A stretch of 11,717 nt of DNA from a virus. Lineage: Duplodnaviria; Heunggongvirae; Uroviricota; Caudoviricetes. The DNA lies in IMG/VR virus record IMGVR_UViG_3300031857_000071, positions 82,271 through 93,987 of that record; one strand, given 5' to 3'. The first letter of the stretch is position 1. Each line of letters starts with the position of its first letter. The notes under the pieces are model-generated. The model was given only the letters and a program-made list of their open reading frames with translations. It was not told the DNA's origin and did not search any database. A program made the translations under genes and the position numbers. Of the stretch, positions 1,928-11,717 are shown one piece after another.

Positions 1928-2218
1928 TTATTTTCCACAGTTAACTCCTTGTGCTGGCGTTGGTGTAAATGCTGGTGTAGCCATACTTTGATTTTGTTTA
2001 TCATCTGGAGGTCCTAATCTAGGGTCACGTTGTCCCTTGAATACATGTTCGGGGCAGGTTCTTGTTACATCACATGCTGGTTTTTGGCAAATTGCTTTGT
2101 CCCAATTATTCGGGTCTTGGCAAGGATAACGGAATCTATCGCCACCGAAAACTGCTAGTGCAAGTGGGACTGCTATTAATATTGCTAGCCACCTAAAAAG
2201 TTTTAAATCACTATTCAT
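1928..2218 (-). CDS. Single-anchor protein with Cys-rich exported domain (96 aa)
   Basis: N-terminal hydrophobic segment WLAILIAVPLALAVFGG then DRFRYPCQDP...CQKPACDVTRTCP (4 clustered Cys plus a C-terminal Cys). 1-nt overlap with the endolysin stop. Confidence 0.7.
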   Translation of the reverse strand: MNSDLKLFRWLAILIAVPLALAVFGGDRFRYPCQDPNNWDKAICQKPACDVTRTCPEHVFKGQRDPRLGPPDDKQNQSMATPAFTPTPAQGVNCGK

Positions 2219-2844
2219 CAGTGTGCTCCTAAAACATGTAATGCATGTTCATAGTGCTTGATGCGGTCCTCAAGACCGATTGTACCACCGTTGATGCGTT
2301 TTGTCAAGGTAATAATATCACCTTTGTCAGCCCATTGGTTTAGATTATTTGTTTCCCAGAACCAGCAAGCTGATTGTGCGGCACCCTCAAATGTAGCAAG
2401 ATATTCTGATGCTTCATCTGGAGAAATGTGCAGTGATGCGGCAAACCAAGTATAGTTTTGTTTACCCGTTAACTGGATGAGTCCACGACCACAATATTTG
2501 TATCCGTCACCTGATGCTTCATCACCATTACCCATACGGTTAGCATAAACACGATTTGCGATAGCTTCTTGTTTATTTGGACGTGAGCAATACTCATTAG
2601 CAATTGCATCATCCGGAAAATACTTGGGGAAAATCTTACGGAGTGTTGCTGGTCTATAATTTAGATTTTCTTTGAGTGCTGTGAAGCCACCAGATTCGTG
2701 GGCACATTGAGCAATAAAAGCCGCAATACGTTGAGGTGTATTGATTTCATAATCTGGCAATAGTTGAGCCAAAGCATTGTGCCAATGTTCAACGTGAGGA
2801 TTTTTAGGAAGTAATTGTTTTAATTGTTGTAATGTAAGTTCCAT
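2218..2844 (-). CDS. Glycoside hydrolase family 19 (chitinase-like) endolysin
   Basis: GH19 motifs AFIAQCAHESGGF (catalytic Glu), YCGRGLIQLTGKQNY, SACWFW, TKRINGGTIGLEDR. No signal peptide. Adjacent to spanins. Confidence 0.93.
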   Translation of the reverse strand: MELTLQQLKQLLPKNPHVEHWHNALAQLLPDYEINTPQRIAAFIAQCAHESGGFTALKENLNYRPATLRKIFPKYFPDDAIANEYCSRPNKQEAIANRVYANRMGNGDEASGDGYKYCGRGLIQLTGKQNYTWFAASLHISPDEASEYLATFEGAAQSACWFWETNNLNQWADKGDIITLTKRINGGTIGLEDRIKHYEHALHVLGAH

Positions 2845-3107
2845 TATTTTAATCCCTCAAAAATATTTTTTTGCACTTGATACCATTCAATCCATGCATC
2901 ATTTTTCACAGCACATGTATAATATTCCGTATAGTTAACAGTGATAGTTTTTGCTATATCACTTAATTTAGCGTCATCGTTCACTTTGTTTAGTTGTGGA
3001 CATTTAACCAATAAGTGTTTAGGTACTTCTGGAAACTTTGCTACAACAGGAACAGTAGTTGAACATCCGGTTAATAGAGCAACAAATAAGAAAAACAAAT
3101 ATTTCAT
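2844..3107 (-). CDS. Outer-membrane lipoprotein, o-spanin (Rz1-like)
   Basis: Signal II with lipobox LLTG|C, Pro-containing region, further Cys residues (KCP, YTCA). Directly downstream of an i-spanin-like gene. Confidence 0.8.
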   Translation of the reverse strand: MKYLFFLFVALLTGCSTTVPVVAKFPEVPKHLLVKCPQLNKVNDDAKLSDIAKTITVNYTEYYTCAVKNDAWIEWYQVQKNIFEGLK

Positions 3108-3556
3108 TTTGGTGCCTCTGCCGCTTTATTATGTAGTACTATGAATTCTTTAGGAATTTCACACTCACCACCAGGTAAAAACTTTGTGTCGTACTTGACA
3201 ATTTCTTTATCAACATATTTGATAATATCTTGGCCACGTTCTTTGACAATCTGCGTCTTTGTCACAATTTTGGTTTCGATCTTGACGTTCTCTTTTACAG
3301 ATTCAACTTGTGCCGCTTCGACTTTGGCTTCAAGTTCTTTCACTCTAGCCAACCATGCTTCTTCATTCGAGATTGCACCTGACATGTAAGTACCTATCAC
3401 TATGAGAGCAACAGAGCCTAATTGTATGGGAGTTTTGTAAAGATATATTGCCGGAATAGGAATAAATCTAAGCAAGTAGGTTACAGCAAGACCTATCAAA
3501 CCTATACCAAGTATGGCATAGAAAATCCAGAACGGTAACCATTTTAGTATCCACAT
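3104..3556 (-). CDS. Inner-membrane spanin (Rz-like)
   Basis: N-terminal TM segments, then helical coiled-coil (ARVKELEAKVEAAQ...), late Cys (GECEIP). ATGA overlap with the o-spanin. Confidence 0.75.
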   Translation of the reverse strand: MWILKWLPFWIFYAILGIGLIGLAVTYLLRFIPIPAIYLYKTPIQLGSVALIVIGTYMSGAISNEEAWLARVKELEAKVEAAQVESVKENVKIETKIVTKTQIVKERGQDIIKYVDKEIVKYDTKFLPGGECEIPKEFIVLHNKAAEAPK

Positions 3557-3557
3557 T

Positions 3558-3743
3558 TTACATCTTTGGTCGTTTGCGTGTGAATGTTGGTGCCATTACG
3601 ACACGTTTCTTTTTCTTAAGATTAACACCAGGTTCACCACCCTTTTCACCAGTACCTGCAATAGCACCTGTGCTTACTACATTGCTTGGTCCTGGACTTC
3701 CGCCGCCAGCATCTTCTAACATGAATTGCTTGAAAGTTTTCAT
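3558..3743 (-). CDS. Small head-internal protein candidate with capsid-targeting-like N-terminus (61 aa)
   Basis: Begins MKTFKQFMLE| (T4 IPII/IPIII CTS is MKTYQEFIAE). Gly-rich middle, very basic C-terminus KKKKRVV...RKRPKM. Confidence 0.7.
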   Translation of the reverse strand: MKTFKQFMLEDAGGGSPGPSNVVSTGAIAGTGEKGGEPGVNLKKKKRVVMAPTFTRKRPKM

Positions 3744-4733: not shown

Positions 4734-4747
4734 TATTTACTATTTAT
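4734..4747 (-). promoter_or_regulatory. Tandem T4-like late promoter motifs
   Basis: Minus strand AATAAATAGTAAATAG: ATAAATA (4747-4741) and TAAATA (4739-4734), followed by SD AAGGAG and ATG at 4709. Confidence 0.65.
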
Positions 4748-6741
4748 TGTTTCTGTGAATTTGGTCTGGTCTTAAGAACAGGCTCAATCTCTACGGTATC
4801 ACGTGGCTTTCCTGTCATAGTAGTGCCACCCTGTAATGTGATTTTGGCATTGGGCTTATCGTCTTTTTCCCAATCATACATGCTTTCATTTTTACCCTTC
4901 TTTTTATAGATGGATTTAATGATACGTGCTGATTTCATGTTCTTCTTGCGGTGTTCTGATTCCATAGCCTTAACGGAGTTTGTAGCAGATAGGGGGGAAT
5001 CTTCGATGCCGCCAATACCTTCTTGTACGGTATCTTCTGAGACGGACTTCCAACCACCACCCTTAGACTTGTACCATTTTGATGCCCAACCATTTGCATA
5101 TGCTGAAGGATAAACATCGAACTTGGAACGGGCCATTGATTTTGCTCTGGACCATAGTGCAGGATTTGTTGGCTTATTTTTCTCATCAATTTGTTCGGTT
5201 TCTTCATTTTTAGGTACACAATTTGGTACAACTTTGCCACCCTTCATTTTGGTGCCAACTTGTTTGTGTGTGTCCCAACATGCTTCATCAACTTCTTCTT
5301 CACTGAGTTTACCTTTGCCGTAATTTGAAACATTAACGGGTTTACCACCTTTACCTGCTCTGTCTGCAACTGGATCATGTCTTCTCTTTGTTGCAACTGC
5401 GGCCGCACGTTCACTCTTACTGAGTTCAGCACGTTTTTCTTTTGACATACATTTTGGTTTTGGTTCACCTGGTTCCCTGGCGCACGGACCTGCTACTTCA
5501 CCTTTTGAATTGATTCTTTTCCAATCACCCTCTGGATCAGTTTTGCTAAACCATTTGCGTAAATCTTCACGTGTAATATGGTCATCGGCATCCATATTAT
5601 CGGGCATCTTTTTCAGTTCATTGATTTTTTTAGCATCATTGTCGAACTGTTTTCTAGTAGCTTTCATTATACCAGAAAAGCGTTTGTTGCCTTTTGCAAT
5701 ATCACCGGATTTATCTGCGGCGGATGCTTGAGCACCTGCGGCTTTTTTATAGCGACCTAGAAGGTCGGAGGAAAGTTCATCCAACTTTTCAAGTTCTTCT
5801 TTGATTGCAACAATCTTGTTGTACATGTCCATCGACAATGCACCTTCACCACGCATGTTGATTAGATTTTCAACAACTTTGTGCAGGTCCATATCAGTTT
5901 TCGCATCTTCACGTGCATATTCAAGAACACGAATGAGTAATGGAATATCCATTGTTACTGTATCTTTTTCATCAACAGCTTCTTTAACCTGTTTCTTTTC
6001 TTCGTTCCAATCGTCACCACGTTCACCCATACCAGATGTTTCTTTCACGTGGCGCATCTTGAAAATTTTGAATTCAGAAGAACGTGCATATGCTTTCTTT
6101 TGATTGCCGTCCATGGTCAAAGGATTCAAACCTTTAGACTTAATGAAAGACATTAGAAGGCCTGTTCCAGCTTCATCTAATTGTTCAGATTCTTCATTAA
6201 CTTCTTCACGGTGAACAGTTGCACCTTTGATTTTTTTGGCTACGTTTGTAGCATGAGACTGTGAGCCGAATGATTTCCACTTTTTACCATTAATATGAAC
6301 AGCATGTGGATGATCCGCAGGTTTGTTATAAGAACGTTGTGTCGGTTCATCATCATCTGCATGTCCCATGCGTTGAATCTCACGATTGCTCATACGTGAA
6401 ACATCAACGAAACCGGCTTCAGAAACTTGTTCAGTTTCTTCCTTTTTAATGTTCTGTTTTGCGGCATCAAAAGTGTGACCCACCTTAAAACGCTTGAACG
6501 CATTTGATCGTGCATATGATGAACGCTGTGCAAAAGTCATAAACTCGGGATTGAAGCCAAGCGAACGAATGTACTTCATTAGAAGTCCATCTTCATTCAG
6601 AACTTCTTCTTTGACGGGTTGTTGATATTTTGCAGACCAAGGTTCCATTGGATCCTCATAAGGTGAATCGCCAAGTTTACCCATTACGGATTCTTTTTTG
6701 GCCTTCACCAGGTTCTTGACTAATTTACCGGCTTTGCTCAT
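4744..6741 (-). CDS. Modular head-internal polyprotein candidate (665 aa), includes DUF5872-like module
   Basis: Basic 25-90 aa modules separated by acidic linkers ending (V/I/L)xE (VLNE, QVSE, QLDE, KLDE, KINE, EVDE, QIDE, TVQE). Module KNKPTNPALW...YPSAYANGW..KWYKSKGGGW recalled as DUF5872-like. Confidence 0.75.
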   Translation of the reverse strand: MSKAGKLVKNLVKAKKESVMGKLGDSPYEDPMEPWSAKYQQPVKEEVLNEDGLLMKYIRSLGFNPEFMTFAQRSSYARSNAFKRFKVGHTFDAAKQNIKKEETEQVSEAGFVDVSRMSNREIQRMGHADDDEPTQRSYNKPADHPHAVHINGKKWKSFGSQSHATNVAKKIKGATVHREEVNEESEQLDEAGTGLLMSFIKSKGLNPLTMDGNQKKAYARSSEFKIFKMRHVKETSGMGERGDDWNEEKKQVKEAVDEKDTVTMDIPLLIRVLEYAREDAKTDMDLHKVVENLINMRGEGALSMDMYNKIVAIKEELEKLDELSSDLLGRYKKAAGAQASAADKSGDIAKGNKRFSGIMKATRKQFDNDAKKINELKKMPDNMDADDHITREDLRKWFSKTDPEGDWKRINSKGEVAGPCAREPGEPKPKCMSKEKRAELSKSERAAAVATKRRHDPVADRAGKGGKPVNVSNYGKGKLSEEEVDEACWDTHKQVGTKMKGGKVVPNCVPKNEETEQIDEKNKPTNPALWSRAKSMARSKFDVYPSAYANGWASKWYKSKGGGWKSVSEDTVQEGIGGIEDSPLSATNSVKAMESEHRKKNMKSARIIKSIYKKKGKNESMYDWEKDDKPNAKITLQGGTTMTGKPRDTVEIEPVLKTRPNSQKQ
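6049..6588 (-). repeat. Internal 38-aa duplicated module in the 665-aa protein (copies at 6475-6588 and 6049-6162)
   Basis: GLLMKYIRSLGFNPEFMTFAQRSSYARSNAFKRFKVGH versus GLLMSFIKSKGLNPLTMDGNQKKAYARSSEFKIFKMRH: 20/38 identical without gaps (hand count). Confidence 0.9.
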
Positions 6742-7595: not shown

Positions 7596-7889
7596 TTAGC
7601 AGTTCCATTTGCGTAGTGATAATGCTTTTCTAGTTGGTCTACCTTTTTCATCCTTCATAGGACCTGGCATTCCACCCATTCTAGCACAGAATGATTTTCT
7701 TCTATTAGCCGCTTTGCTTCCAGGTTTCAATTTGGAAGGTGGTGTTGTCACGGCCATCGATAGTTTAGAACCTGGATTCTCACGGCGATAAGAAGCAATA
7801 CCTTTACGGTTCAATCCACCTTCGGGATTTTTACCTGCTTTTCTCTGCCATGCGGCTGATTCTTCTAAAAATTGTTTGAAACTTTTCAT
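7596..7889 (-). CDS. Basic head-internal protein candidate (DUF6321-like, recalled), 97 aa
   Basis: N-terminus MKSFKQFLEE| is CTS-like; the remainder is strongly basic, with AWQRKAGKNPEGGLN, RRKSFCARM and ALSLRKWNC motifs. Confidence 0.75.
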   Translation of the reverse strand: MKSFKQFLEESAAWQRKAGKNPEGGLNRKGIASYRRENPGSKLSMAVTTPPSKLKPGSKAANRRKSFCARMGGMPGPMKDEKGRPTRKALSLRKWNC

Positions 7890-9793
7890 TTCTTTTTCTT
7901 CTTAGGGTTGGTTTCAATCTTATTTAAAGTTTCCATCGGTTCTTTATTAGATGGTCCATGGTCTCCACCGGTGACTCCCATTTCTGTGCTAGGAGAATCA
8001 ATTGATTCTTGTCTAAACTTATTGAAAGATTTGCGTGTCACCTCTGCGGTACTGGTATATTTATGCGCTGTCTGTTCTTTATATGTAACCATACCGAGAC
8101 CGGACATTGGATAAACTGTACCTGAACCACGTGTATCGTATTCAGGTGTAACACCTGCCGCCTTTATCACTTTGCCTGCTTCGGCGCCTGAGGCTTTCTG
8201 CCTCTTGGCTTTCTGTTTGTCGTTGTCTTGTTGGAAACGGGGTTCTTTTGCTGGACTTTTGACGGTGATGGTTGGGCTACTGCTTTCATAGGTTCTGAAG
8301 GTGTAGCTGGAGTTTGAGGTAACTCCTCCGTCTTTAATGTCGTCTGGCTTACCTTGTCTTCTGACGAGTTCACAGCTTGGACAGATGTTGTCGGCAAGTC
8401 TGAAACGCTTGTAAGAACCGCTTTTTTGGTCGGACCGTCCAGAGGATGTGGTTTTGTCTCCGCAGGAGCAACTTGGTCCTTCGGTAAGAACAGCTTTGCT
8501 ATTTGTTTTAGTTTCTGTAACATATTTCTTATATCCCTTTTCTAATGTAGGTTTTGTTATAAAGTTTTCAAACATCTTATTGATGTTATGTTTTTTGTGT
8601 CGAATCATCCAAGATTCGGCTATTTCATTCTCAACAGGGGTATCAAAGAACCAGTTAGTCATTTCGTATATGATAGAAATGTCTTCCTCTTTCTCTGACG
8701 TTTCAATTTCATTTGCTTCATTCAGGTCGATGGAGTTATCAAACTCCAAATACTTCTTGAATTCCTGATTGAATTTTTCTGCCACAAGTTGTGTGACTTC
8801 CCATCTCTCTTGACGTACAGATTCCGCCATCATTCTTTCATGTCCCTGATTACGTTTTCTGGATGATTCATTTGATGTGTTAACAAAAATCATCATCGTT
8901 TCGTAACCAAGTTCTTCGAGTTCTTCACGAATGGCAATAATATTGTATTGTTCGTTTGTTGTGCCAGTGATAATTAAAGGCTGGCGCTGGCGAATTGCTT
9001 CACGGCGGATGTCACGTGAAAATTCATACAATCTGTGTTTATCATTTAGAATTGATATTGCGGTGGTTGAAGTAATCTCAACAGCATTTTGTTCAGCAAT
9101 AGCTTCACGTATGATAATATCTTTACCGGAACCTGGACCACCAGAAATGAAAATGGCTTTGAACATGCCATGATTAACATTCTCATGTATGCCCATTCCA
9201 CCTCTAACATCACGGAACAATTCACGTGCATGTTTTTCTGGAACGTGGTGTGGAATACCCTGTTTGAAAGAATGAAAATCATTGTTCTGTGCATGTTCAC
9301 GCATCTTTGATGCTGACATACCTTCGGTACCCTCTGCATCAGGATCACGTTGGCCAGCAGACTTTACTTCAATCTTTTTGAAATTGTACAATGCACCAGC
9401 ATGGGTTCCATTGTATTGTTGAAGTTTCTTTTCATATTCAGGAATGCGATCTGAGCCAGCAACCATTATTAAGTGGTCATGACCCATTTGATTTAATTTT
9501 GCGGCATGTTGTAAAAACGTTGGATGTTCTTTACTTGATGCTTCAATATTCGCACCAGGAAAGAATCTTTTTGCATGAAGTAACTTCTTTTTAATTTCAA
9601 GTGGATTTTTCTTAGCATCCACGGAATGTGAAATGATAATATGGTGTGGAGCACCATGGTCATGTGCAATTTGTTGTACATGATTGACTAATTTTTCGTG
9701 GCCAATAGTAGGTGGATTCATACGGCCAAAGGCCATGACAACAGGACTATGTGTCTGTGTATCTTCTTCTATTTTTTGTAAAAACTTTTTCAT
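7886..9793 (-). CDS. Fusion: HxGH (cytidylyltransferase/NMNAT-like) nucleotidyltransferase + P-loop kinase-like (Zeta toxin/AAA_33/PNK-like) + low-complexity tail
   Basis: FGRMNPPTIGH (HIGH-type motif), AGSDR, SASKMRE. Second domain has Walker A GGPGSGK (aa 218-224, nt 9142-9122), LGYETMMIFV..S.E.S.KRN and FDNS. N-terminus MKKFLQKIEE. Confidence 0.85.
   Translation of the reverse strand: MKKFLQKIEEDTQTHSPVVMAFGRMNPPTIGHEKLVNHVQQIAHDHGAPHHIIISHSVDAKKNPLEIKKKLLHAKRFFPGANIEASSKEHPTFLQHAAKLNQMGHDHLIMVAGSDRIPEYEKKLQQYNGTHAGALYNFKKIEVKSAGQRDPDAEGTEGMSASKMREHAQNNDFHSFKQGIPHHVPEKHARELFRDVRGGMGIHENVNHGMFKAIFISGGPGSGKDIIIREAIAEQNAVEITSTTAISILNDKHRLYEFSRDIRREAIRQRQPLIITGTTNEQYNIIAIREELEELGYETMMIFVNTSNESSRKRNQGHERMMAESVRQERWEVTQLVAEKFNQEFKKYLEFDNSIDLNEANEIETSEKEEDISIIYEMTNWFFDTPVENEIAESWMIRHKKHNINKMFENFITKPTLEKGYKKYVTETKTNSKAVLTEGPSCSCGDKTTSSGRSDQKSGSYKRFRLADNICPSCELVRRQGKPDDIKDGGVTSNSSYTFRTYESSSPTITVKSPAKEPRFQQDNDKQKAKRQKASGAEAGKVIKAAGVTPEYDTRGSGTVYPMSGLGMVTYKEQTAHKYTSTAEVTRKSFNKFRQESIDSPSTEMGVTGGDHGPSNKEPMETLNKIETNPKKKKK
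8167..8523 (-). CDS. Possible overprinted gene nested in the 635-aa ORF (118 aa, Pro/Thr/Lys-rich)
   Basis: ATG start after purine-rich AAGGGA, amphipathic N-terminus MLQKLKQIAKLFLP, low-complexity linker, basic tail KPRGRKPQAPK. Same strand, different frame. Confidence 0.4.
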   Translation of the reverse strand: MLQKLKQIAKLFLPKDQVAPAETKPHPLDGPTKKAVLTSVSDLPTTSVQAVNSSEDKVSQTTLKTEELPQTPATPSEPMKAVAQPSPSKVQQKNPVSNKTTTNRKPRGRKPQAPKQAK

Positions 9794-10986
9794 ATGTTTC
9801 TGATTCCTGCAAAGTTCCTACGAGAAAATTCTGCACGGTTAACAAACTTGTCAGACTCTTTTTTATGATGGAAAACATATCCTTCTGGATTTGCCGCTTC
9901 ACCACCGTGTTCATGTTGAAATTCTTGGTGTTGATTCATTACATTAATTAAAACATTTTTTGCTTTTTGTAAATGCTGGTGCATTTTAAATAGATTATTA
10001 TAATGTTTTTTGTTTGATTCTACTTTACCCAACTCATCTTTTAATTCAGACTGTTTTGCGGTTCTGTTCTTTTCAACCTTTAACTTATCTATTGCTTTAT
10101 TTTTTGTTGTTTCCAACCAGTTGCTGAAATTTTTATGATTGGGTGTTTCACCTGTTCTAACAGTGTGGTTCATATATGTTTCTAAATGACCGCCTATTCC
10201 GTGATGCAGTTTTGTTCCATCGTACATAACACCACCGTGTGTGTCATGCACAGCTTGTGCGGCAGAGATGTGTTTATTAAATTCAGCACGATCTTTAGGT
10301 CCAAAATGTACTTTTGAAGTGTCCATTCTTGGATCAACAGAAAATACGTCTGAATGTGGTTTAAAGTTTTCGTGGTCAACTTCATGTGAAGCATTTAAAC
10401 TTTGTGCATTTTTACCTGAATATGACAAGTGCGTCACAACACCAATCTTAGCTTTTTTGACTGCATTTGCATGTGTACCATGTGCAGTATAAGTCAGACC
10501 AGATGGATTTGGATGAAAGGAAACTCCACCACCAGCACTCTTTTTATCTTCTTGTGAGAACATCATGTCACCTTGATATACACCACTCTTAGGTGCAATT
10601 TTAGGTAAATGTTGCAATGCATCTTTTAATTTACCCACTAAACCTGGAGCATGGCCATGATTCTTTTCAATGTCAGCAGGAGTGTAGTTAATCTTTGGTG
10701 TCTTATTGAAAGCTGATTTTGATGCTACAAAAAACTTACCATTCTCTGGATGATGACCATAAACAATAGCTGGTGAACCATCATATTTTGTTGTGAGTTC
10801 AGAGGTCTTTTTACCTTGTTGAATATGTTTTGCCGCAGAAGTTAAAGAGTCAATAGCATGTTTAGCACCCTTTTCTCCGTTCTGGAGGGGTCGATCTTCC
10901 ACGTGCGTGAGATGTTTAATCTGACGACTGGCACCTTCTTCGGCCGGATCTTCTTGCTCTGTTAAAAAGGTATTAAATGTTTTCAT
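9790..10986 (-). CDS. ATP-dependent ligase-like nucleotidyltransferase (DUF6267-like, recalled), 398 aa
   Basis: Motif I TTKYDG (K67), Ia-like FFVASK, III-like VYQGDMMF, IV PEGYVF, V-like DKFVNR near the C-terminus. N-terminus MKTFNTFLTE| is CTS-like. Confidence 0.75.
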   Translation of the reverse strand: MKTFNTFLTEQEDPAEEGASRQIKHLTHVEDRPLQNGEKGAKHAIDSLTSAAKHIQQGKKTSELTTKYDGSPAIVYGHHPENGKFFVASKSAFNKTPKINYTPADIEKNHGHAPGLVGKLKDALQHLPKIAPKSGVYQGDMMFSQEDKKSAGGGVSFHPNPSGLTYTAHGTHANAVKKAKIGVVTHLSYSGKNAQSLNASHEVDHENFKPHSDVFSVDPRMDTSKVHFGPKDRAEFNKHISAAQAVHDTHGGVMYDGTKLHHGIGGHLETYMNHTVRTGETPNHKNFSNWLETTKNKAIDKLKVEKNRTAKQSELKDELGKVESNKKHYNNLFKMHQHLQKAKNVLINVMNQHQEFQHEHGGEAANPEGYVFHHKKESDKFVNRAEFSRRNFAGIRNI

Positions 10987-10987
10987 A

Positions 10988-11717
10988 TTAATGTACTTTA
11001 GCAGGCACTACATTCCAGCCATGCACATCAGATTTGAATGCATTGCTTTTTGTTTTCGGTGAATAGTGTGCCAACGTTGTTAAACTTCCATCTTTTTCAA
11101 CCTTATGTATACTCACCCTATCACCGTGTTGTGTTGCGGCATATCTTGAATTTTTATTTTTAAACACTTGATTTAGAGGAGATTCACTTCCAGGTGTAAC
11201 AGTAGCATGTACTTTAGTTACAGATTCGCCTTTAGCATGTACTTTAGACCAAGGCATACTTGTCGTTGGTGTCAAATGATTTTGTAACATTTTACCTATC
11301 ATACTGTGGCCTTCTTGACCGAGATTAGTTGTCAAGTGTGTTAAATGATCGTGTAATTCTGTTGATATTTTGGTTTTAACAGCTCTTGATTTCTCATTCG
11401 CCATAGATTCCAAATCAGTCAACTTTTGATCTTTTGGTTTCTTCTCTCTTGCGGAGTCTAAGATTCTTGCTCTATTTGCCGCAGAAACACCACCATACCC
11501 CATCTGCTTATGCACTTTCTGTAAACCATCTCTAGACACCTTTTCAGTATCGAGAACTCTAGTTTTATGGTGCAACATACCCTTCATATCAATAGCAGGA
11601 TTCTTTGCTGTAATAACGCTAGATTTGCTTGATGATTTCAATGATAAACCTTCATAATGCGATTCATCAGGAGTTTTGGCTAGTGTTGAATTTTTTACTT
11701 CAACTGCAATGTCTGAT
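10988..11717 (-). CDS. Partial ORF, PD-(D/E)xK nuclease-like (5' end outside window)
   Basis: The track's TTG start at 11641 is not the true start: the frame stays open to the window edge, adding SDIAVEVKNSTLAKTPDESHYEGLSLKSSS. The DI...GLSLK pattern matches restriction-like nuclease active-site motifs. His-rich. Confidence 0.55.
   Translation of the reverse strand, partial: SDIAVEVKNSTLAKTPDESHYEGLSLKSSSKSSVITAKNPAIDMKGMLHHKTRVLDTEKVSRDGLQKVHKQMGYGGVSAANRARILDSAREKKPKDQKLTDLESMANEKSRAVKTKISTELHDHLTHLTTNLGQEGHSMIGKMLQNHLTPTTSMPWSKVHAKGESVTKVHATVTPGSESPLNQVFKNKNSRYAATQHGDRVSIHKVEKDGSLTTLAHYSPKTKSNAFKSDVHGWNVVPAKVH

Follow-up and report, generated by a model that had tools for sequence, protein, structure and literature searches.

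Introduction

Capsid targeting in T4-like phages is best known from the internal proteins of T4 itself. In the T4 record, IPII and IPIII both begin with MKTYQEFIAE and IPI begins with MKTFKEF, and the genetics of IPIII assign positions 4 and 7 of this capsid targeting sequence (CTS) to targeting and positions 8 and 10 to processing (PMC9026906). T4-GC71 and T4-GC190 belong to the core gene set of those marine myoviruses that are most abundant, and have been without an assigned role since 2005-2010. Here we analyse an 11,717-nucleotide stretch of DNA, hereafter the window, which corresponds to positions 82,271 to 93,987 of the IMG/VR record IMGVR_UViG_3300031857_000071. It lies at the right-hand end of a 94-kb contig from an uncultured aquatic T4-like myovirus, with a CheckV completeness of 56% and with T4-type baseplate genes present on the contig; a near-identity DNA search of the phage collection gave no match to the window. 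Two adjacent genes of the window belong to the same families as T4-GC71 and T4-GC190. They code for a protein of the DUF6267 family, predicted to have a ligase-like fold, and for a 635-aa protein predicted to combine an adenylyltransferase with a kinase. Both start with a T4-like head-loading tag, and the two enzymes are therefore probably injected with the DNA.

A conserved pair of enzyme genes

Every gene of the window lies on the minus strand. A first-pass annotation of the window had described three tightly coupled genes at its end, and the coordinates of the open reading frames (ORFs) agree with that layout. The three co-directional ORFs, at 10988-11716 (open at its 5' end), 9790-10986 and 7886-9793, are separated by a 1-nt gap between the upstream ORF and the DUF6267 gene and joined by a 4-nt ATGA overlap between the DUF6267 gene and that of the 635-aa protein. 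The features of the latter two genes, all on the minus strand, are the following.

9790..10986, minus strand: DUF6267 protein, 398 aa, with a putative ligase-type covalent nucleotidyltransferase domain (Pfam, AlphaFold2 (AF2) model, VIA-align, motif conservation)
10957..10986, minus strand: CTS-like propeptide MKTFNTFLTE of the DUF6267 protein, predicted to be cleaved after Glu10 (tag motif; residues 1-16 of low predicted local distance difference test (pLDDT) score)
7886..9793, minus strand: 635-aa protein made up of a CTS-like leader, a predicted HxGH adenylyltransferase, a predicted P-loop kinase and a basic low-complexity tail (PHROG, AF2, NadR alignment)
9764..9793, minus strand: CTS-like leader MKKFLQKIEE of the 635-aa protein (matches at F4, I8 and E10; Lys in place of an aromatic residue at position 7)
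9179..9751, minus strand: predicted HxGH-superfamily nucleotidyltransferase domain, residues ~15-205 of the 635-aa protein (motifs GRMNPPTIGH and SASKMRE; VIA-align)
8594..9178, minus strand: predicted P-loop kinase domain, residues 206-400 of the 635-aa protein (Walker A GGPGSGK; Foldseek)
7886..8593, minus strand: basic low-complexity C-terminal tail of the 635-aa protein, isoelectric point (pI) 9.6 (CxC...CxxC cluster, terminal KKKKK)

What is conserved is a pair and not a trio, and its members are adjacent or fused throughout aquatic T4-like myoviruses. Of 47 related loci that were informative, 46 have the transferase domain either fused to DUF6267 (11 loci) or encoded by the next gene (35 loci). 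Fusions with the transferase, in either domain order, also account for ~36 of the 46 long DUF6267 representatives, and one such fusion, of 591 aa, is encoded in the resequenced genome of S-PM2. A predicted complex between the DUF6267 protein (residues 17-398) and the transferase domain (residues 12-205) scored 0.00, which gives no verdict and is not used either way.

Probable T4-type capsid targeting tags

The first-pass annotation had noticed CTS-like decapeptides at the start of both complete genes, and comparison with T4 IPII and IPIII confirms them. The DUF6267 tag MKTFNTFLTE matches T4 at positions 4, 7, 8 and 10 (F4, F7, L8, E10), and the leader MKKFLQKIEE of the 635-aa protein does so at positions 4, 8 and 10. 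Two smaller proteins of the window have F4 and F7 both present.

7596..7889, minus strand: 97-aa DUF6321 protein with the CTS-like start MKSFKQFLEE, mature part of pI 11.5 (motif, composition)
3558..3743, minus strand: 61-aa protein with the CTS-like start MKTFKQFMLE, mature part basic, pI 10.7 (motif, composition)

Positions 8-10 of these four window proteins read LTE, IEE, LEE and MLE, and the mature tagged proteins are basic, with pI values of 8.7-11.5. The strict motif was found in 3 of the 140 contig ORFs, as against 0.04 expected from shuffles; with position 7 relaxed, it was found in four contig ORFs, all of them within the window. In a complete 177-kb relative (G001, 83%-identical), the tag occurs on only two of 241 ORFs, namely the two enzyme genes.

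To describe the family, we used 150 DUF6267 representatives at <=50% identity obtained by an exhaustive search, 95 sequences of the family being aligned. The tag is present in 57 of the 150 representatives and in 76 of 78 IMG/VR loci. Among tag-bearing representatives, position 4 is F (47/49), position 7 is F or Y (46/49), position 8 is L, I or V (49/49) and position 10 is E (49/49). Conservation is confined to positions 1, 4, 7, 8 and 10, and positions 2, 3, 5, 6 and 9 vary. As for the 635-aa protein, its near homologues begin with MK[KST]FL[EQ]K[ILV]. A gp21-type prohead protease is encoded by G001 (Peptidase_S77), HTVC008M and S-SM1, and the G001 protease has LVE at residues 7-9 of its own N-terminus; no such protease gene is on our 56%-complete contig. 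We consider packaging in this phage likely. Our literature search found no paper tying a capsid targeting sequence to these genes, and what has been published on DUF6267, the cyanophage 'cytitidyltransferase', cyanophage capsid targeting and expression timing contained nothing decisive.

A short conserved motif resembling GLxYxGFGRYG stands right after the tag in some family members, on DUF6267 and transferase proteins alike. It is found in S-SM1 (locus L016, 5257-6420) and in the representatives P0228, P0239, P0245 and P0248.

Tag presence and virion detection in cultured cyanophages

Mass spectrometry of cultured cyanophages provides four cases in which a tag, or its absence, can be set beside the content of the virion.

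S-SM1 GC190: tag MKKFSAFLNE; detected in virions by mass spectrometry (PMC3037559)
S-CREM2 gp154: tag MKNFSSFLTE; detected in virions, 3 peptides (PMC10665884)
S-SM1 GC71: no tag; not detected in virions
S-PM2 protein: no tag; not detected in virions

Presence or absence of the tag thus tracks virion detection in all four cases checked, which is suggestive only. The authors of the S-CREM2 study called the family an NMNAT (nicotinamide mononucleotide adenylyltransferase) homologue and raised the possibility of the transferase being carried into the cell (PMC10665884). The packaged pathway, which the first-pass annotation had put forward as possibly new, is hence not wholly so, since the idea of a cytidyltransferase carried in the virion and acting on entry is already in print (PMC10665884).

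The hypothetical proteins gp155, gp156 and gp160 of S-CREM2, encoded downstream of the transferase (locus L113, 3992-5226 and 6843-7736), were also detected in virions. The interval between gp41 and gp61 may for that reason encode several head-internal proteins.

A divergent ligase-like fold in DUF6267

The sole Pfam match of the 398-aa protein is DUF6267 (E 2e-92). An AF2 model built on the 95-sequence alignment has a pLDDT of 93, with residues 1-16 of low pLDDT and detached from the fold. Foldseek searches of this model against the PDB gave weak matches (best E 0.07), nearly all of them to ATP-dependent DNA or RNA ligases. VIA-align, which is independent of Foldseek, placed the Naegleria RNA ligase NgrRnl (5cot) at the top (Z 8.3, 185 residues aligned), followed by Trl1 (Z 7.7), T4 Rnl2 (Z 7.1), DNA ligases (Z ~6-7) and T4 Rnl1 (Z 6.4). 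RNA or DNA ligases make up 20 of its 22 top rows, with middling scores (Z 5.8-8.3, 139-210 residues aligned). Outside the protein's own family, we found an 'RNA ligase domain' cluster of AFDB (E 1.5e-3) and an RNA-ligase entry of BFVD (E 1.2e-2).

The positions that would correspond to ligase catalytic motifs are almost invariant among the 95 aligned sequences. Motif I is contained in KYDG, with Lys67 as the putative catalytic residue (K67 in 93, D69 in 93 and G70 in 94 sequences). The candidate motif III, QGD140, is present in all 95. Motif IV would be E368-G369-x-V371 (94, 95 and 91 of 95), and motif V K380-x-V-x-R384 (94 and 94). The equation of these segments with ligase motifs III-V follows from their order and from local hhalign segments. 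The hhalign comparisons of the DUF6267 profile with T4 gp30 and T4 Rnl2 were not significant, and the sole segments aligned were motif III for gp30 and motif IV for Rnl2. There is no match between DUF6267 and PF01068, PF09414 or PF01653, the profile finds no ligase among PDB sequences, and single-sequence PDB searches returned nothing useful. Three features are unusual for a ligase, namely a helical bundle of ~120 residues (about residues 230-350) inserted before motif IV, the absence of an OB domain, and a conserved N-terminal HLxHxED, which is not a recognised ligase motif. Taken together, model and motifs support the description of DUF6267 as a very divergent ligase-like covalent nucleotidyltransferase. 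That it acts as a ligase we regard as an even call.

An HxGH adenylyltransferase fused to a P-loop kinase

The 635-aa protein matches phrog_3041 and phrog_395, 'cytidyltransferase'. The AF2 model of its residues 1-400 has a pLDDT of 89. In VIA-align, the HxGH domain is closest to phosphopantetheine adenylyltransferase (PPAT; Z 15.2, root mean square deviation 2.5, 148 residues aligned) and NMNAT (Z 13.5), and its profile matches PPAT, RibF and MJ0951. The characteristic motifs are TIGH, in which H32 is invariant, and SASKMRE, in which S160 and R165 are invariant; in addition, PPAT has a PKKNPLF loop with which the KKNPL loop of this domain aligns. No match to PF01467 was obtained for the 635-aa protein at E values up to 1. 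Among relatives, gp130 of HTVC008M reaches 20.4 bits against a cut-off of 21, and a few near homologues carry a precomputed PF01467 match.

The kinase domain matches the Pfam families AAA_33 (E 2e-5; 25.4 bits against a cut-off of 27) and Zeta_toxin (E 1e-3), neither of which reaches its curated cut-off. Foldseek relates it to the kinase of Clostridium thermocellum Pnkp (4gp6, E 4e-6) and also to thymidylate and adenylate kinases. Over both domains together, the top match is NadR (1lw7, E 8e-7; Swiss-Prot NadR, 2e-8), and ATP sulfurylase/APS-kinase-type and PanC/Cmk proteins resemble the two-domain unit about as well. The kinase was found in 22 of the 49 related loci; HTVC008M encodes it as a gene of its own, and it was not detected in the S-SM1 protein. 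These models and matches support the view of the 635-aa protein as a PPAT/NMNAT-type HxGH adenylyltransferase fused to a P-loop kinase. The last 235 residues form a basic low-complexity tail for which no Pfam family was found. A CxC...CxxC cluster in this tail could be a zinc knuckle.

The upstream gene is a rare accessory

10988..11716, minus strand: 3' part of an accessory gene, possibly restriction-endonuclease-like, outside the conserved set (ESM-Atlas features; homologue survey)

The first-pass annotation had counted four nucleotide-acting folds in three genes. The ligase-like, HxGH and P-loop folds stand, with the AF2 models and fold searches described above; the fourth, a 'nuclease-like' fold in the upstream gene, is not borne out. 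The upstream gene has no Pfam or PHROG match, and a search of PDB sequences with its family profile found nothing. Its ESM-Atlas features match, at 0.93-0.95, clusters partly annotated as RE_HaeIII/RE_HpaII (HaeIII/HpaII/HinP1I-type restriction enzymes), and the nuclease call, drawn from this language-model resemblance, is only a lead. We found eight homologues of the gene among 5.8 billion clusters; 80 related IMG/VR loci, the complete relative G001 and the locus L008, an 80%-identical relative, yielded none. Neither is it similar to the genes that lie upstream in L008 or HTVC008M. Its longest homologue (286 aa) begins with MANAALEAIK and has no tag. We therefore rejected the three-gene set, as the upstream gene is rare, untagged in its longest homologue and does not co-occur with the other two. 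The idea of a virion-delivered set is accordingly retained for two genes, for which the tag, its conservation, the gp21-type protease of relatives and the virion-detected homologues speak, and given up for the third.

In HTVC008M, the gene upstream of DUF6267 (locus L002, 7914-8972) has the tag-like start MLSFTGYSNLSE. It shares an (I/L)SLKS motif with the upstream gene of the window, and the overall similarity of the two is not significant.

Genomic context

The pair had been assigned to a late structural/lysis block, away from metabolism genes. The lysis cassette is there, but the block runs into replication and nucleotide genes. Downstream of the pair, the window encodes in order the DUF6321 protein, two large basic proteins of unknown family, a 182-aa protein of no known family, a DUF7207 protein and the 61-aa protein, followed by an i-spanin, an o-spanin, a GH19 endolysin, four small ORFs without informative match and the gp61 primase. 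Genes for a sugar epimerase, NrdA and NrdB come past the window end. In the 80%-identical relative, UvsX and the gp41 helicase precede the block. The slot is thus the gp41-gp61 interval, in which cyanomyoviruses hold T4-GC71, T4-GC190 and the DUF7207 homologue T4-GC198, and the neighbourhood is a replication/nucleotide region with a lysis cassette, not a late structural block. The gene set of the window is thereby corrected to two genes instead of three, and its context to the replication region. Scans of the window for ATAAATA, sigma-70 promoters and terminators gave hits at chance level.

The lysis cassette is complete within this replication region (window 2218-3556, minus strand) and comprises a GH19-type endolysin of 208 aa, a LysC/Rz1-like o-spanin of 87 aa and an i-spanin of 150 aa. 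Positions 71-194 of phrog_727 match residues 355-470 of a 665-aa basic protein (window 4744-6741, minus strand), and its C-terminal positions 345-430 match the 97-aa DUF6321 protein (window 7596-7889, minus strand). The corresponding regions of the two proteins appear joined as one protein in other phages. In L008, a DruA-family gene, with a Druantia-type Pfam domain, directly follows the gp41 helicase gene (2621-3727).

Discussion

We favour, with a probability a little above one half, the reading that the pair forms a packaged and injected module for processing nucleic-acid ends, consisting of a ligase and an adenylyltransferase, with the kinase as an optional third component. The T4-type capsid targeting sequence on each protein would bring about its incorporation into the prohead core, and a gp21-type protease would presumably trim the tag after Glu10. 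The trimmed proteins would stay among the packaged DNA, like the basic internal proteins of T4, and enter the host with the genome. Once in the host, the ligase-like enzyme might adenylylate itself at Lys67 and join or cap the ends of nucleic acids. In the manner of a polynucleotide kinase, the kinase domain could provide 5'-phosphates, and the HxGH domain would make an adenylylated cofactor, such as NAD+ or a dephospho-CoA-like compound, or another adenylate. We infer every one of these substrates.

Several observations weigh against this reading. The ligase assignment comes from middling scores (Foldseek E ~0.07, VIA-align Z <=8.3, hhalign not significant), and DUF6267 contains neither an OB domain nor any other known domain for binding nucleic acids. 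At targeting position 7, the leader of the 635-aa protein carries Lys, and position 10 is Ala rather than Glu in many of its homologues. The virion mass spectrometry concerns homologues and not this phage, whose head genes lie outside the 56%-complete contig. No DUF6267 protein is listed for S-SM1, S-PM2 or Syn9 in the proteome table or in the virion list of S-CREM2. The S-CREM2 transferase was detected from 3 peptides, and the authors of that study consider carry-over contamination possible (PMC10665884). Finally, the T4 late-promoter sequence TATAAATA is not in the window, and no late-promoter consensus was found there.

The main rival, which we find unlikely, is that DUF6267 is the 'missing' intracellular DNA ligase of cyanomyovirus-type T4-like phages. 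It would seal Okazaki fragments, the adenylyltransferase would support its cofactor, and the tag would be irrelevant or mark a secondary packaged pool. The location of the DUF6267 gene between gp41/UvsX and gp61/NrdAB and its presence in all 16 cyanomyoviruses of Sullivan 2010 speak for this explanation. So does the distribution of ligases, as S-PM2 and HTVC008M carry DUF6267 without PF01068 or PF01653, the complete relative G001 is also without PF01068, and T4 has gp30 without DUF6267. Reviews report no g30 homologue in cyanomyoviruses and allow for unrecognised distant ones; on the other hand, host LigA can serve such phages (PMC2984593). A relative of 51% identity (G005; locus L102, G005:C1:51180-54773) has a canonical PF01068 ATP-dependent ligase alongside DUF6267. 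Strict complementarity, in which DUF6267 and canonical ligases would never occur together, is rejected because of this genome, which argues against a simple replacement of gp30. Furthermore, the nearest structures are RNA ligases, the OB domain is missing, and a role in replication only would leave unexplained a targeting peptide that is conserved at its functional positions.

Still less probable in our view is a role in cofactor salvage or counter-defence. The 635-aa protein would then be NadR-like (NMNAT with a riboside kinase) or CoA-synthase-like (PPAT with a dephospho-CoA kinase) and rebuild NAD+ or CoA, and its ligase-like partner would use the cofactor. NadR as the top two-domain match, PPAT and NMNAT as the closest folds to the transferase domain, the alignment of the KKNPL loop with that of PPAT and the naming of the family as an NMNAT homologue by the S-CREM2 authors are all in line with it. 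Yet all bifunctional HxGH and P-loop enzymes, such as ATP sulfurylase and PanC/Cmk, score alike, which makes this a generic architecture. Of 49 related loci, 27 do not have the kinase, nor does the S-SM1 protein, and the best matches of the kinase are polynucleotide and nucleoside monophosphate kinases. NMNAT alone, moreover, cannot restore NAD+ after cleavage by an NADase, which also counts against this explanation.

That the N-terminal motif is no packaging signal (but, for example, a conserved amphipathic helix with another role), that virion detections are carry-over of abundant proteins and that the enzymes act in the producing cell only is very unlikely: the contamination caveat of the S-CREM2 authors (PMC10665884), the departure of the 635-aa protein from the T4 tag at position 7 and the 93 of 150 DUF6267 representatives that fail the strict motif test, some of them truncated gene calls, are in its favour, but it is exactly the T4 functional positions 4, 7, 8 and 10 that are conserved, the others varying freely, the motif is nearly confined to these genes in G001, and the tag tracks virion detection in four of four cases checked.

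Returning to the end-processing module, a more general proposal can be made, which we regard as possible and on the doubtful side. Aquatic T4-like phages, essentially all marine cyanomyoviruses included, might encode an unrecognised polynucleotide ligase (DUF6267/T4-GC71) obligately coupled to a PPAT/NMNAT-type adenylyltransferase. In many lineages, a T4-type targeting peptide would bring the pair into the capsid and the pair would be injected. It would join or cap ends of the incoming genome or of host RNA before phage genes are expressed, and the ligase might also be a substitute for gp30. A ligase fold with intact motifs, the fusion or adjacency of the two genes and the head-loading tag make T4-GC71 and T4-GC190 directly testable candidates. 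The findings are also relevant to a puzzle raised in the literature, the missing DNA ligase of cyanomyoviruses, and they would carry T4 capsid targeting beyond small anti-restriction proteins, to a conserved pair of enzymes.

Comparison with known systems

With ATP-dependent ligases (NgrRnl 5cot, the LIG domain of Trl1, T4 Rnl2 2hvq, T4 Rnl1, and archaeal and human DNA ligases), DUF6267 shares the predicted nucleotidyltransferase fold and the order of the motifs KxDG, G(D/E), EGxV and Kx(V)xR. It differs from them in having no sequence-profile match, no OB or C-terminal domain, a helical insert of ~120 residues and the HLxHxED motif. The 635-aa protein resembles NadR and other enzymes that combine HxGH and P-loop domains (PAPS synthase, PanC/Cmk, CoA synthase) in domain order and folds. 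Unlike them, it has no HTH domain, its kinase is optional across the family, and Thr replaces the first His of HxGH, as in PPAT.

The combination of a kinase and a ligase in a T4-like phage recalls the repair of PrrC-cleaved tRNA by T4 Pnkp and Rnl1. The module described here has no phosphatase domain, no detectable sequence homology to these enzymes and an additional, obligately coupled HxGH enzyme. To our knowledge, T4 Pnkp and Rnl1 are not known to be packaged.

The cyanomyovirus 'cytitidyltransferase' T4-GC190 and hypothetical protein T4-GC71 (PMC3037559) and S-CREM2 gp154 (PMC10665884) belong to homologous families (phrog_395, phrog_3041, phrog_455; DUF6267). They occupy the same gp41-gp61 slot, and GC190 has been seen in virions. 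Compared with them, the lineage studied here adds a P-loop kinase and a basic tail of 235 residues to the transferase, and its DUF6267 protein is tagged, whereas those of S-SM1 and S-PM2 are not.

Lastly, the pair can be compared with T4 IPI, IPII, IPIII and Alt (Mullaney and Black 1996, reviewed in PMC9026906 and PMC3012670). The tags agree in the aromatic residues 4 and 7, in L or I at position 8 and in Glu10. Further likenesses are the basic mature proteins, the gp21-type protease, here found in relatives, and the variety of cargo behind a constant tag. The cargo in this phage consists of large enzymes and not of small inhibitors or DNA-binding proteins, packaging and cleavage are predicted, and the genes form a conserved core pair rather than a hyperplastic set.

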